64,000 nt of DNA, taken from Escherichia phage IME08. The stretch lies in the sequence record NC_014260.1. One strand, written 5' to 3'. The notes beneath the pieces were generated by a model. The model was not told the origin of the DNA. It worked only from the letters and a program-made list of their open reading frames with translations, and did no database searches. A program made the position numbers and the translations under genes. Shown here piece by piece: positions 1 to 9,827 of the stretch (its first letter is position 1; each line of letters opens with the position of its first letter).

Positions 1-159
1 GGCAAATCCTTAATTCAGCCAGAAGAGTCTATTATAATTCCGTTTTCGAACATCAGAATTTCTACAGAAAAGATAAAGTTAAATGAAGTTGAAGTTAACA
101 ATTTAGCAAAAAGTATTTTAGAATCAACAACCCAAGAAGAGGTTCATAGTGTGTTTTAG
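1..159 (+). CDS. 3' end of an ORF entering from upstream (identity unresolved; gp24-side late gene or N-terminal part of the collagen-like fibre gene)
   Basis: Open frame from window edge to TAG 157-159 (…EVHSVF*); only 53 codons visible, so coding status is tentative. Confidence 0.3.
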
Positions 160-1349
160 GAATAAACAATTCCCAGATAGAGCCAATAGAGGGTCCGCCG
201 GGCCCTCAAGGAGACCCGGGCCCACAAGGTATTCAAGGCCCGCCCGGCCCTCAAGGAGACCAAGGTCCACAAGGTATTCAAGGCCTTAAAGGAGATAAAG
301 GAGATACAGGTCCACAAGGTATTCAGGGCCTACAAGGACCCAAAGGACCTAAAGGAGACCAGGGTCCACAAGGCATTCAAGGGCCTATAGGTCCTATAGG
401 TCCCGCAGGGCTAATATGGAAAGGAGAATGGGATGTAGATACACTTTACTCTGTCGATGATGCTGTTGGATATGCAGGTGCATCATATTTTTGTATAGCC
501 GAAAATACCGGTAATATACCCACAGAATCGCCGGAAAACTGGGCCTTATTAGCATCGCAAGGAGCTAGAGGAGAATCAGGGGCCCAGGGCCTACAAGGAC
601 CCAAAGGGGATAAAGGAGATACGGGTCTTCAAGGTATTCAAGGACCCAAAGGGGATAAAGGAGATACAGGTCTTCAAGGACCTATAGGGCCTATAGGACC
701 TAAAGGAGACCAGGGTCCTCAAGGTTCTAGAGGTATTCAAGGTATTCAAGGTCCCCAAGGAGACCAGGGCCCACAAGGTTCTAGAGGTATTCAAGGTATT
801 CAAGGACCTCAAGGAGACCAAGGTCCGCAAGGCCTTCAAGGACCCCAAGGAGATAAAGGAGAGGATGGATTCGGAATTGATTCTAAAATAAGTGGGGTAT
901 ATAAAATTCCTGCATCCGGAACCAAAGGACAATTTTATATAAACTTACCTGGGGCAGGTGGTCTTAGATTGATTGTATCAACGGCTGGGACAGGTAATGC
1001 TGTTAAAATAGGATACGGAGGTAACTCTAGCACTGTTCAAAGAACATTTACTATAGGATATAATTTAACAGCTAATTATACCGATTTGGCAAAAATAAAA
1101 ACCGGTAGGATAAATTATACAGGGTATACTTCGGTTTCATATAGTAGCGATACAACGGCTCTAGTCGGATATGGGGATATGTATACAGCAATAGCCTCTA
1201 ATAAAGATACTTTAGATTCATGGCATATAGTAATATCAGGCGTAGTGGCAAAATCATCTGCTTCGGCCACTGATGGAAGATTACTTATATCTGTAACTAA
1301 AGTTTTTGATTCCGAAACTCAACAGATTCAAACAGGTGAAATATATTAA
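150..1349 (+). CDS. collagen-like (Gly-X-Y) repeat protein with CBM5/12-like insert and Gly-poor C-terminal domain; no canonical start codon
   Basis: Frame open from in-frame TAG 147-149 to TAA 1347-1349; Gly-X-Y triplets from 192; first ATG/GTG/TTG in frame is at 969. Confidence 0.5.
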
Positions 1350-1357
1350 AACATAAA

Positions 1358-1371
1358 GGGCCGCAAGGCCC
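1358..1371. terminator. GNRA-loop hairpin (GGGCC-GCAA-GGCCC) between convergent genes; bidirectional terminator
   Basis: Perfect 5-bp GC stem with GCAA loop between collagen-like ORF stop and rnlB stop. Confidence 0.6.
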
Positions 1372-1378
1372 TTATCAT

Positions 1379-2500: not shown

Positions 2501-2710
2501 TTACTTTGAACTAGAACGCGCTTTGCGCCGAACCTTGTTGTTCAATCTTTTACGATAGACAATCTTTTCTTTCGCTTTAAATTTGGCCTTAGCATTCTCA
2601 ACTTCGGTCCAAGCTTTAGCCATATCTCTGGCGGTTCCGCCAATCTTTTTAGCAATATCAATAAAATTCATACCCGATTCATGTAAAAAATGTACTTTAA
2701 TCTTATCCAT
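2501..2710 (-). CDS. small basic helix-turn-helix-like protein
   Basis: 69 aa; HTH-like segment GMNFIDIAKKIGGTARDMAKAW followed by Lys/Arg-rich tail; own early promoter upstream. Confidence 0.4.
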   Translation of the reverse strand: MDKIKVHFLHESGMNFIDIAKKIGGTARDMAKAWTEVENAKAKFKAKEKIVYRKRLNNKVRRKARSSSK

Positions 2711-2738
2711 AACAATTCTCTTGTGATTTGACTATTCA

Positions 2739-2768
2739 ATAATAACATGAGAATTTTAACTTGTAAAC
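2739..2768 (-). promoter_or_regulatory. T4-type early promoter (minus strand GTTTAC-N18-TATTAT)
   Basis: Plus-strand ATAATA (2739-2744) and GTAAAC (2763-2768), about 30-60 nt upstream of ORF start at 2710. Confidence 0.45.
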
Positions 2769-2862
2769 AGGAGATTTTATGCCAGACAATCCATTATACG
2801 GGCATGACGGTAGAGGTGTATCATTAGAACTCACTAGTGAAAGCACCTTTTAAGGAGGTTAA

Positions 2863-3761: not shown

Positions 3762-4895
3762 TTAATAAACGTAATCGTAAATAATTCCAGCATCCAAAGC
3801 GGTTCTGTGAATAATTCTACCATTACGAGATTCCTGTACATCAACCTCCGGATAGTCAGTAATCATTTTTTGAAGAGTATAACGATGGAGATAGAAATCA
3901 CTATCAGGGTCATCGGTTTTCCAGTCTTTGCCTTCAAGAGTCATTTTCTGGATTTCGTCCATAACCCACCAACCACACCAGATATAAGCTGAATTGCGAA
4001 CTGGTAGCGGATGAACGTAAGGTAGTTCGCCCTCTGGAACTGGTGCGACTTTAGCCGTGACTGTTACATTACCAGTTTTGGTAACAGTCGTAGGGTTATA
4101 ATCGGCGGCCGAAACAACAGCAGAAACTTCAATAACCTGTGAACCTTCAGCGCTTGTGTCAATTACTAATGTATCTGTAGCACCCACAACAGGTGAACCG
4201 TCTTTCTTCCAAGAATAAGCAAAAGTGGCACCACTAGGCGCACCTGCTACGGTAGCTTTAAAAGAAGCCGGAGTTCCTTCAGGTACATTAATAGAGGCTG
4301 GCGTTAAATTAACAGAAACCCCAGACATTGTTTTCTTAACAAAAGAAACCGTTACGCCTTTAGCAGCAGTTGCTGAACCGTATTCCGGAGAGGTAACAGT
4401 AACTTCACAATTCAAGGTATAATTTGCTTCGGCTGCTTCAGTTAGTGTAATAGTTTTAGAGGTTTGGCCTGAAATTACGGTGGTATTTCGTTTCCAAACA
4501 TAATTAATTGTTGCACCAGCAGGAGCACCGGTTACATTAGCCGTAACAACTTGGGATTGGCCGACTTCTTTAGAAACGGAAGTAGGGTCCAAAGCCAAAG
4601 AGATATCCATAGTTTTATTAGATACAGTAACTTCAAAGGTGTCTTCGGCTGTCTCAAGAGGACCCGCATCGCCAGGGTCAGAAGTTACTACTACTTTTAT
4701 AACTTTCTTACCCGCAGGAGCAGCACCCGTATATCTCAAAACATTAGTGGTTTCTGGGTTAGCAGCTCCATCAACGGTCCATACATATGCAATGGTTCCA
4801 CCTGTTACAACTGCGTCGGTTGCGGTAGCAGTGTAGTTAGCGCTTTCGCCTATTTTCATAGACGCTGCGCCGGCTATACTTACAGTAAAGGCCAT
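3762..4895 (-). CDS. hoc: highly immunogenic outer capsid protein Hoc
   Basis: 377 aa; matches recalled T4 Hoc along most of its length (Ig-like repeats, KTGNVTVTAKVAP…ELPYVHPLP, C-terminal capsid-binding domain). Confidence 0.9.
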   Translation of the reverse strand: MAFTVSIAGAASMKIGESANYTATATDAVVTGGTIAYVWTVDGAANPETTNVLRYTGAAPAGKKVIKVVVTSDPGDAGPLETAEDTFEVTVSNKTMDISLALDPTSVSKEVGQSQVVTANVTGAPAGATINYVWKRNTTVISGQTSKTITLTEAAEANYTLNCEVTVTSPEYGSATAAKGVTVSFVKKTMSGVSVNLTPASINVPEGTPASFKATVAGAPSGATFAYSWKKDGSPVVGATDTLVIDTSAEGSQVIEVSAVVSAADYNPTTVTKTGNVTVTAKVAPVPEGELPYVHPLPVRNSAYIWCGWWVMDEIQKMTLEGKDWKTDDPDSDFYLHRYTLQKMITDYPEVDVQESRNGRIIHRTALDAGIIYDYVY

Positions 4896-5596: not shown

Positions 5597-5604
5597 TATA
5601 AATA
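5597..5604 (+). promoter_or_regulatory. late promoter TATAAATA (uvsW)
   Basis: Exact TATAAATA about 30 nt upstream of uvsW ATG. Confidence 0.6.
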
Positions 5605-5610
5605 TAACTA

Positions 5611-5618
5611 TATTTATA
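5611..5618 (-). promoter_or_regulatory. late promoter TATAAATA on minus strand (inh/hoc)
   Basis: Plus-strand TATTTATA; divergent partner of the uvsW late promoter. Confidence 0.5.
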
Positions 5619-5632
5619 ACTGAGAATTACTT

Positions 5633-7129
5633 ATGCAAATTCAAGTACATTTCGATAATTTTAGTCATGTTCGTATTGAGTGTGATGAATCCACATTCTA
5701 CGAACTCAGAGACTATTTTAGCTTTGAAGCTGATGGATATAAATTCAACCCTAAATTTCGTTATGGTCAATGGGACGGACGTATTCGCCTTCTGGATTAT
5801 AATCGTAAACTTCCTTATGGATTGGTTCCGCAGATTAAAAAATTCGCTGAACAATTTGAATACTCTCTGTGGATTGACCCACGTATTCTTGAACAGGAAG
5901 ATATTTCTCGTGAAGATTTTGACTCATGGGTGGCATCTCAAGAAATTTATTCAGGGTCTACCAAGATTGAGCCCCATTGGTATCAGAATGAAGCCGTATA
6001 CAACGGTCTAACAAAACGTCGCGCAATTCTGAATTTACCTACATCTGCAGGTAAATCATTAATCCAGGCGCTCCTGAGTCGATACTACGTTGAGAACTAT
6101 GAAGGTAAAATTCTTATCTTAGTTCCTACTACTGCACTCGTTGACCAGATGATTAATGACTTCATCGATTATCGGTTGTTCCCTAAAGCCGCAATGCTTG
6201 GAATTCGTTCAGGTACTGCTCGTGATTCTGATGCAATGATTTACGTTTCGACTTATCAAACTGCTATTAAGCAACCTAAAGAATGGTTTGCTCAGTTTGG
6301 TATGTTTATGAACGATGAATGTCATTTGGCTACAGGTAAATCTATTTCTACCATCATCGAAGGCCTAACCAACTGTATGTTTAAATTCGGTTTGTCTGGT
6401 TCTTTAAAAGATGGTAAAGCTAATTTAATGCAATATATGGGTTTGTTTGGTGATGTGTTTAAACCTGTTTCCACCTCCCAATTGATGGAAGAAGGACAGG
6501 TTACAGACCTTAAAATCAACAGTATTTTCCTTCGATACCCAGACGAATTCACTGTTAAGATGAAAGGTAAAGATTACCAATCAGAAATTAAAGTCATTAC
6601 TAAGGCTACTCGTCGTAATAAATGGGTTGCTAATTTAGCTGTTAAACTCGCTAAGAAAGAAGAGAACGTATTCCTGATGTTTAAAAACATCGAACACGGT
6701 AAAACTCTTTTTGAAATGGTTAAAGAGCAACATAAAGAAGTTTATTACGTATCAGGTGAAGTTAATACCGAAACGCGTAATGCTCTGAAAGTAATGGCGG
6801 AAAATGGTAAGGGTATTATTGTTGTGGCAAGTTATGGTGTGTTCTCTACTGGTATTTCTGTTAAGAACCTTCATCACGTTGTATTTGCTCACCCAGTAAA
6901 ATCCAAAATCATTGTACTCCAGACAATTGGTCGTGTACTCCGTAAACATGCTTCCAAATCAACAGCGCAAGTATGGGATATCATCGACGACATGGGTGTT
7001 AAGCCTAAATCAGCTACGGCTAAAAAGAAATATGTTCATTTGAACTACGCCCTCAAACACGCTTTAGAACGTATTCAACGTTATGCTGATGAGAAATTTA
7101 ATTACGTAATGAAACAGGTGGATTTATGA
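5633..7129 (+). CDS. uvsW: UvsW DNA/RNA helicase
   Basis: 498 aa; SF2 helicase motifs (PTSAGKS Walker A, DECH box); T4 position. Confidence 0.9.
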   Translation: MQIQVHFDNFSHVRIECDESTFYELRDYFSFEADGYKFNPKFRYGQWDGRIRLLDYNRKLPYGLVPQIKKFAEQFEYSLWIDPRILEQEDISREDFDSWVASQEIYSGSTKIEPHWYQNEAVYNGLTKRRAILNLPTSAGKSLIQALLSRYYVENYEGKILILVPTTALVDQMINDFIDYRLFPKAAMLGIRSGTARDSDAMIYVSTYQTAIKQPKEWFAQFGMFMNDECHLATGKSISTIIEGLTNCMFKFGLSGSLKDGKANLMQYMGLFGDVFKPVSTSQLMEEGQVTDLKINSIFLRYPDEFTVKMKGKDYQSEIKVITKATRRNKWVANLAVKLAKKEENVFLMFKNIEHGKTLFEMVKEQHKEVYYVSGEVNTETRNALKVMAENGKGIIVVASYGVFSTGISVKNLHHVVFAHPVKSKIIVLQTIGRVLRKHASKSTAQVWDIIDDMGVKPKSATAKKKYVHLNYALKHALERIQRYADEKFNYVMKQVDL

Positions 7130-7353
7130 AAACCTTTAAAGAAGTTATTCAGGAAGCATCTATTGAAAGCTTCATGTCTAAAATTAGTTCGTGTCAGACC
7201 ATGGAAGGTCTGGAGGAATTAGAGAAGTATTACAAAACTCGTAGTAAGGAAGCCGAACTTCGTGATTCGGATGATATCAGCGTACGCGATGCATTGGCTG
7301 GTAAGAGAGCTGAATTGGAGTCGATGGACGACGAGGAAGAGGAAGATTTCTAA
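7126..7353 (+). CDS. uvsW.1: UvsW.1 small acidic protein
   Basis: 75 aa, ATGA-overlapped with uvsW stop; acidic C-terminus DDEEEEDF. Confidence 0.6.
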   Translation: MKTFKEVIQEASIESFMSKISSCQTMEGLEELEKYYKTRSKEAELRDSDDISVRDALAGKRAELESMDDEEEEDF

Positions 7354-9815: not shown

Positions 9816-9823
9816 TATTTATA
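9816..9823 (-). promoter_or_regulatory. late promoter TATAAATA on minus strand (gene 26)
   Basis: Part of palindromic TATTTATAAATA shared with the gene 51 promoter. Confidence 0.5.
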
Positions 9824-9827
9824 AATA
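9820..9827 (+). promoter_or_regulatory. late promoter TATAAATA (gene 51)
   Basis: TATAAATA about 20 nt upstream of ATG 9848, RBS AAGAGG between. Confidence 0.55.

Follow-up and report, generated by a model that had tools for sequence, protein, structure and literature searches.

What is the gene at the left edge of the Escherichia phage IME08 sequence, and how is it expressed? The window analyzed here (64,000 nucleotides [nt] of sequence record NC_014260.1; all coordinates are window positions) comes from a JS98-like Dhakavirus of the Tevenvirinae. Its RnlB, 288-amino-acid (aa) Hoc-like, Hoc and UvsW proteins are exact matches to ADI55499, ADI55501.1, ADI55502 and ADI55504. Region 1-1349 encodes a collagen-like protein in an open reading frame (ORF) that lacks a canonical start codon and abuts an upstream ORF in another frame. 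The original prediction, made from the sequence alone, offered three explanations: (a) a fibre gene whose N-terminal part is joined by a frame change, (b) non-canonical initiation, or (c) a decaying pseudogene. Comparison with related phages indicates that both ORFs are parts of one fibre gene, with the frame shift located within 150-156, at a run of T residues. The gene is an ordinary collagen-like fibre gene with a frame break and has neither an unusual start nor a new recoding signal.

A scan of frames and codons agrees with the predicted layout. Frame 3 has stops at 84, 90, 96 and 147 and is then open from 150 to the TAA at 1347-1349 (399 sense codons), and its earliest ATG, GTG or TTG is TTG 969; within 1-1400, frame 1 has 28 stops and frame 2 has 38. 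In frame 1, no stop occurs between the window edge and TAG 157-159, and frames 1 and 3 do coexist briefly, over the 7 nt of 150-156. The claim that start codon and ribosome-binding site (RBS) are absent is true in the window but not for the gene. With the frame-1 peptide as query, a single protein was retrieved, the 68-aa ORF P0001, with an identical tail (sequence MVDETLFGHDGRGNFSGKSLIQ...HSVF). P0001 begins MVDETLFGHDGRGNFSG, and JS10 EpJS10_0176 begins similarly (MADSIFGHDGRGTFSG). The ATG of the fibre gene is accordingly placed, from the protein match, 48 nt upstream of window position 1; the start codon and RBS would be missing because the gene begins before the window does, and non-canonical initiation becomes unneeded.

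The 68 aa of P0001 joined to the next frame-3 codons give a repaired N-terminus of 81 aa. When this query was compared with phages by tblastn, 17 records covered at least 80% of it, uninterrupted across the junction and with E values down to 9e-8, including Aeromonas phages 65, AS4 and GomatiRiver_11, the Dhakaviruses ABTNLsp5, CLB_P2, dhaeg and JS10, and Erwinia phage FBB1. Four more records, including Pantoea phage Phynn and Erwinia phages Cronus and IT22, covered 70-79%. An LGI(T) column is kept in 10 of 12 aligned homologues, and IME08 encodes LGI directly after the break. Because the N-terminal domain and LGI align unbroken to single fibre ORFs, frames 1 and 3 can be read as one original gene. 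All ten homologous genes that were translated, from Straboviridae genomes, are single ORFs; the IME08 gene departs from the phrog_5073 / JS10-like family in not being a single uninterrupted ORF. Addition of one T (T5) restores HSVF-LGI, and removal of two restores HSV-LGI, which is the family length. Explanation (a) is upheld insofar as the upstream ORF is the fibre N-terminus and an indel in the T run at 154-157 fits; its other half, programmed recoding, fares poorly, as discussed below.

Downstream of the break, the two Gly-X-Y blocks predicted from 192 onward were both recovered, and the protein matches Pfam Collagen (PF01391) in four stretches (99.9 bits against a cut-off of 27.2, E = 6.9e-29). 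The collagen duplications (195-347 and 569-860) have units of 45 or 54 nt (15 or 18 aa) that are 88-97% identical and young; the number of copies could be unstable, or assembly of the 73-75-nt reads could have collapsed it, with the frame preserved either way. The insert between the blocks is present as predicted, but it measures 48 aa and not ~60. Its identification as a carbohydrate-binding module (CBM), here called CBM5/12-like, is weakly supported by sequence comparison: the insert covers nearly the full Pfam CBM_5_12 profile (PF02839, positions 1-43 of 44) with 21.7 bits and E = 2e-4, but this is below the 26.2 cut-off, as is the score of the whole protein (16.8 bits). A profile of 15 family inserts had its best PDB match in 1ED7, the chitin-binding domain of ChiA1 (E = 8e-4); the next, weak matches were to chitin deacetylase, Chitinase 60, ChiB and ChiC modules (E = 0.003-0.7), mixed with unrelated chains, so that the majority of this weak signal agrees with CBM5/12. 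Both the insert (E = 1.7e-19) and the C-terminal domain (E = 2e-5) match phrog_5073, annotated as 'tail fiber protein'. The C-terminal domain, predicted at ~160 aa and found to be 157 aa, gave an all-beta AlphaFold2 model that is weak (predicted local distance difference test score 61.6, shallow alignment) and resembles only generic beta-sandwiches. A C1q/TNF-like head, as in the BclA / C1q architecture, was considered for this domain and is unsupported by these generic matches of a weak model.

The ~80-aa N-terminal domain (FGHDGRG...LGI) is shared with the T4-like collagen fibre family (phrog_5073 / JS10 EpJS10_0176-like). JS10 EpJS10_0176, CLB_P2 UNI73282, Aeromonas phage 65 ST65p147, CGG4-1 gp212 and Cronus gp244 have the same N-terminus and the same order of collagen, CBM5/12-like insert, collagen and C-terminal globular domain, and their genes are located, like that of IME08, among the head genes 24/rnlB/hoc. 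The assertion that such a fibre is outside the T4 gene set thus holds for T4 itself, but annotated homologues exist in JS10, Aeromonas phage 65, CGG4-1, Cronus and other phages; the synteny comparison that had been proposed places the T4-like homologues at the same head/hoc locus. The family is labelled "tail fiber" in many genomes.

The IME08 fibre also differs from its T4-like relatives. Its N-terminal identity to them is only 31-39%, it has a C-terminal domain that is unrelated to the one in JS10 and distinct from the predominant 'DVDxLTxxQL' type, and its gene lies between gp24 and rnlB, frame-broken and without hoc-2 (a gene for a short second Hoc) directly after it. From the insert through the second collagen block to the C-terminal domain, the protein has 33-39% identity to Vequintavirinae proteins such as Cronobacter phage CR3 gp011 and Escherichia phage LTH01 WWT49286. 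The homology to Vequintavirinae proteins, which are also found in Pectobacterium phages P7_Pc and POP15, continues down to the terminal ...TQxIQTG(E/N)(I/V)Y. The Vequintavirinae collagen-like genes also lie between capsid and neck genes, but they have no hoc-like neighbour, and no similarity of the IME08 N-terminal domain to the CR3 N-terminus was detectable. Since the N-terminal domain is not CR3-like and the C-terminal domain is of Vequintavirinae type and unrelated to that of JS10, the gene is a modular chimera of a T4-like N-terminus and a Vequintavirinae-type C-terminus, an arrangement typical of fibres with exchangeable tips. The G+C content of the non-collagen parts (31-36%) is near that of the phage (40%), which argues against recent import from a GC-richer genome. 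In virion proteomics of Certrevirus CB7, a large collagen protein was detected, and a CR3 gp011 counterpart is not evident in the virion protein table. In a large protein collection, the CR3-type C-terminal domain occurs only in truncated proteins of 105-132 aa that start from an internal Met (P0036-P0039). Such collagen genes are seemingly broken or dropped routinely by gene callers, and the family is therefore under-represented in protein databases.

How did the frame come to be broken? The T run at 154-157 would have either lost one T from T5 or gained two, and the indel would place TAG 157-159 in frame after codon 68. Because of this stop, translation would end with the 68-aa N-terminal peptide, and the sequence as deposited would yield no fibre. 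On balance, we slightly favour a real and recent mutation, not a programmed event, that inactivated a dispensable accessory gene. The pseudogene explanation is then correct in that the gene is broken but not in calling it decaying, as there is a single lesion only; the 399 flawless downstream codons would make the event recent. The lineage tolerates loss of the fibre: the resident fibre gene of IME08 has been cut to a 24-codon stub, and JS98, AnYang and IME341 are without the whole fibre-hoc-2 cassette.

The competing explanation is a sequencing or assembly error, in which the true T run is five (or two), the ORF of ~465 codons is intact and IME08 makes the fibre. We regard this as possible, though distinctly less probable. 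The IME08 genome was obtained with an Illumina/Solexa GA at ~4300x and assembled with Velvet (PMC3105952). A homopolymer of 4-5 nt is rarely miscounted by Illumina at such depth, and ~46 kb of the window contain no other frame-broken conserved gene. When annotated proteins of the close relative IME341 were mapped onto window 1382-47747, 61 of 68 were full-length in a single frame, mostly with 90-100% identity, and none was split by a frameshift; the other seven had no match or a partial one (the variable-length Hoc and two short ORFs with divergent C-termini). From these observations we infer that the lesion is real.

Several points weigh against that preference and speak for an error. Only one base is affected, and it lies in a homopolymer; early Solexa/Velvet assemblies can take up a minority indel variant. 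The absence of a second lesion in the 399 downstream codons is equally expected if the gene is intact and the consensus is wrong by one base. The terminator and the usual partner hoc-2 are intact as well, and an intact hoc-2 would fit a functional fibre. The T count is not checkable by comparison, because the allele is without a close relative in the collections searched: no near homologue was found in phage genomes (megablast, blastn and tblastn) or in IMG/VR (peptide and DNA patterns), and JGI metagenomes yielded one weak 30% match only. In an index of 5.8 billion proteins, the N-terminus retrieved only the 68-aa ORF, the C-terminal domain alone retrieved nothing, and a C-terminal domain profile retrieved four truncated CR3-like fragments. 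P0001 (MetaClust/UniParc), the sole other record of the 68-aa ORF, is no independent confirmation, as it probably goes back to the GenBank record of IME08 itself.

Programmed recoding at GUG UUU UAG would allow some ribosomes to reach frame 3 and would fix the ratio of the 68-aa N-terminal domain to the fibre, either by +2 re-pairing of tRNA-Val from GUG 151-153 to GUU 153-155 or by a -1 slip. This is improbable. The stop codon directly 3' of the U run would pause the ribosome, and the +2 shift would give HSV-LGI, the exact family length. A Shine-Dalgarno (SD)-like GAGGU (139-143) lies 10 nt before UUU 154-156, a spacing similar to that of the stimulator of the dnaX -1 frameshift. However, U GUG UUU UAG lacks an X XXY YYZ heptamer, and -1 re-pairing is impossible for tRNA-Val and for tRNA-Phe (GUU). 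The sole well-paired slip is +1 onto UUU 155-157 and leads into frame 2, which closes at 287-289. A weak hairpin (GGAAU-AAACA-AUUCC, 159-173) is present, but it has 5 bp and starts 2 nt past the site, and the fold of 130-240 does not exceed that of shuffled sequence in stability (z = -0.91). Rfam has no match at the junction, a shift occurs here in none of the ten homologues, and phmmer found no other stand-alone short N-terminal domain protein among 1.84 billion representative proteins. The specific form in which U4/UAG is a low-efficiency site (+2 by tRNA-Val from GUG to GUU, or a non-canonical -1) and IME08 makes both products at a set ratio is more doubtful still; the G/GT tail-chaperone pairs would be the model for such a free 68-aa attachment domain alongside a full-length collagen fibre.

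The likeness to dnaX, tail chaperone G/GT, T7 gene 10, prfB and T4 gene 60 is superficial and consists of a U run, a stop and an SD-like element; unlike those systems, the IME08 site has no slippery heptamer, productive re-pairing, significant RNA structure or conservation. Other known mechanisms were considered separately and rejected. UUU UAG permits a prfB-type +1 slip, but the resulting frame 2 ends at 287-289. For a bypass of the T4 gene 60 type, the take-off UUU-UAG is present, but landing on UUC 170-172, the one Phe codon nearby, would lead into frame 2 and would also skip the conserved LGI. The junction is likewise unlikely to hold an intron or an RNA element of known type: the frames overlap by just 7 nt, and the Rfam search had no match.

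The least probable explanation, which we consider very remote, is that two products are made and the collagen part starts separately (at ATA 162, 177 or 186) or by reinitiation after TAG 157-159 and then joins the 68-aa peptide non-covalently. There is an RBS-like AGGA at 158-161, and the three ATA codons are in frame, but the spacing from AGGA is 0 nt for ATA 162 and 15 nt for ATA 177, and ATA is a very poor initiator. Such a product would lack the LGI motif or part of it, homologues consist of one chain, and a fibre without the N-terminal domain has no obvious attachment end.

In the other Dhakaviruses whose annotation was read, gp24 abuts the terminator and rnlB, and their DNA homology to the window resumes at ~1346; the IME08 fibre gene is therefore an insertion after gene 24, the position that the fibre gene also has in Erwinia phages Cronus and FBB1. 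At the usual fibre site, IME08 retains the stub of the CLB_P2-like resident gene, together with the intergenic region before it, its start codon, the stop codon of the original gene and the hoc-2 RBS (AAGGAGG, 2852-2858). Window 2700-2827, from the intergenic region into the first stub codons, is ~97% identical to CLB_P2. Relative to that phage, the stub has deletions of 12 nt, ~39 nt and ~1.4 kb, the largest of which joins at AGCAC microhomology. The IME08 gene at 1-1349 is a second, chimeric fibre copy beside this stub. IME341 has, at 6717-7136 of its locus, a 420-nt unannotated gap from a gp24.3-like gene to hoc, where other Dhakaviruses carry the cassette; it may contain another deletion remnant.

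The synteny comparison also brought out a constant partner. In nine of nine T4-like relatives (phages of Escherichia, Salmonella, Erwinia and Aeromonas), the fibre gene is followed directly and on the same strand by a short second hoc (~165-290 aa), often with overlapping stop and start, and JS98, AnYang and IME341 have neither gene, so that the two are present or absent together. The IME08 fibre gene at 1-1349 is not paired in this manner: the terminator and the convergent rnlB come next, and hoc-2 sits behind the stub. IME08 hoc-2 carries the WW and ESRNG motifs, which are capsid-binding residues in the T4 Hoc structure (Fokine et al., 2023, PMC10385173). The hoc genes of IME08 are convergent, with hoc-2 on the + strand and the main hoc (377 aa, 3762-4895) on the - strand. 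Both proteins have a C-terminal WW...ESRNG and therefore would compete for the capsid hexamer centre.

Synteny and co-occurrence suggest that fibre and hoc-2 are a functional pair, possibly with the fibre displayed on the capsid. On the same basis, a location on the head or neck is more likely than one on the tail, and anchoring of the fibre through hoc-2 is a tentative proposal that we hold with less than even confidence. Judged from synteny, the IME08-type fibre may likewise bind the capsid. T4 Hoc and the short Hoc share the locus with the fibre, whose usual downstream partner bears the Hoc capsid-binding motifs, but the fibre itself has neither Ig domains nor a Hoc capsid-binding domain and would be a trimeric collagen, in contrast to the monomeric Ig string of Hoc. 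The collagen-like trimeric capsid decoration protein gp12 of SPP1 (reviewed in PMC7602432) is a precedent for binding to a hexamer rather than to the tail, although gp12 is a small protein that lacks both a CBM-like insert and a large C-terminal domain. No paper describing the fibre or its pairing with hoc-2 was found in the searchable literature.

Region 1-1349 is read as the body of one late structural gene, whose intact product would, given the Gly-X-Y repeats, be a homotrimeric fibre of collagen type; its family is widespread among T4-like phages. The N-terminal domain, which is specific to T4-like phages, would be the virion-attachment end. Collagen rises by 0.286 nm per residue, so that helix 1 (25 triplets) would extend ~21 nm and helix 2 (35 triplets) ~30 nm, and the two together would form a shaft of ~50 nm. 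Between them, a knob of three CBM5/12-like modules would bind glycan or set the chain register, and the tip, modelled as a C-terminal beta-sandwich, may bind a ligand.

Elsewhere in the window, TATAAATA late-promoter motifs stand back to back at 5597-5604 (+) and 5611-5618 (-) in the 50-nt inh/uvsW intergenic region, and a second divergent, overlapping TATAAATA pair is found at 9816-9827.

Table. Features of the IME08 fibre gene and its surroundings (window positions), followed by the fibre-hoc-2 cassette loci of relatives (positions within each named locus)
Feature	Position	Strand	Basis or remark
N-terminal domain, codons 17-68	1..156	+	Frame 1; ATG and first 16 codons (MVDETLFGHDGRGNFS) upstream of window; translation, P0001
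Frame-break site, T GTG TTT TAG	150..159	+	T run 154-157; frame-1 stop TAG 157-159
Frame-3 continuation, L-G-I motif (TTA GGA ATA, 156-164), then short linker to collagen	156..191	+	
Collagen block 1, 25 uninterrupted Gly-X-Y triplets	192..416	+	Internal 45-nt duplications
CBM5/12-like insert, 48 aa	417..560	+	Pfam, phrog_5073, family profile against PDB
Collagen block 2, 35 Gly-X-Y triplets	561..875	+	Tandem duplications of 45 and 54 nt
C-terminal non-collagen domain, 157 aa (876-1346), and TAA	876..1349	+	Vequintavirinae (CR3 gp011 / LTH01) type
Bidirectional intrinsic terminator	1356..1373	both	Common to fibre gene and convergent rnlB
Resident fibre-gene stub, 24 codons, MPDNPLYGHDGRGVSLELTSESTF and stop	2779..2853	+	In frame with original stop, at usual fibre site
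Short second Hoc (Hoc-like-2, hoc-2), 288 aa	2863..3729	+	Exact match ADI55501.1; synteny
Cassette, L001	4698-6577		
Cassette, L003	5995-7877		
Cassette, L004	6001-8703		
Cassette, L005	6001-7516		
Cassette, L006	6001-8255		
Cassette, L007	5001-7382		
Cassette, L008	1082-2912		
Cassette, L009	5001-7192		
Cassette, L010	5001-7487		

The IME08 gene is a new allele of an annotated, uncharacterised family and carries an ordinary disruptive indel. The missing start is explained by the window edge and the abutting ORFs by a one-base frame break; neither requires new biology. The more interesting lead is a collagen fibre with a CBM5/12-like knob that is genetically tied to a short second Hoc. Were hoc-2 to hold the fibre on the capsid, T4-type heads would have a second, trimeric decoration system with exchangeable tips, which would matter for how phages adhere to mucus or cell surfaces and for display technology based on T4. 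IME08, in which hoc-2 is kept, the resident fibre gene is deleted and the replacement is frame-broken, would be a natural comparison strain for the idea of capsid display.

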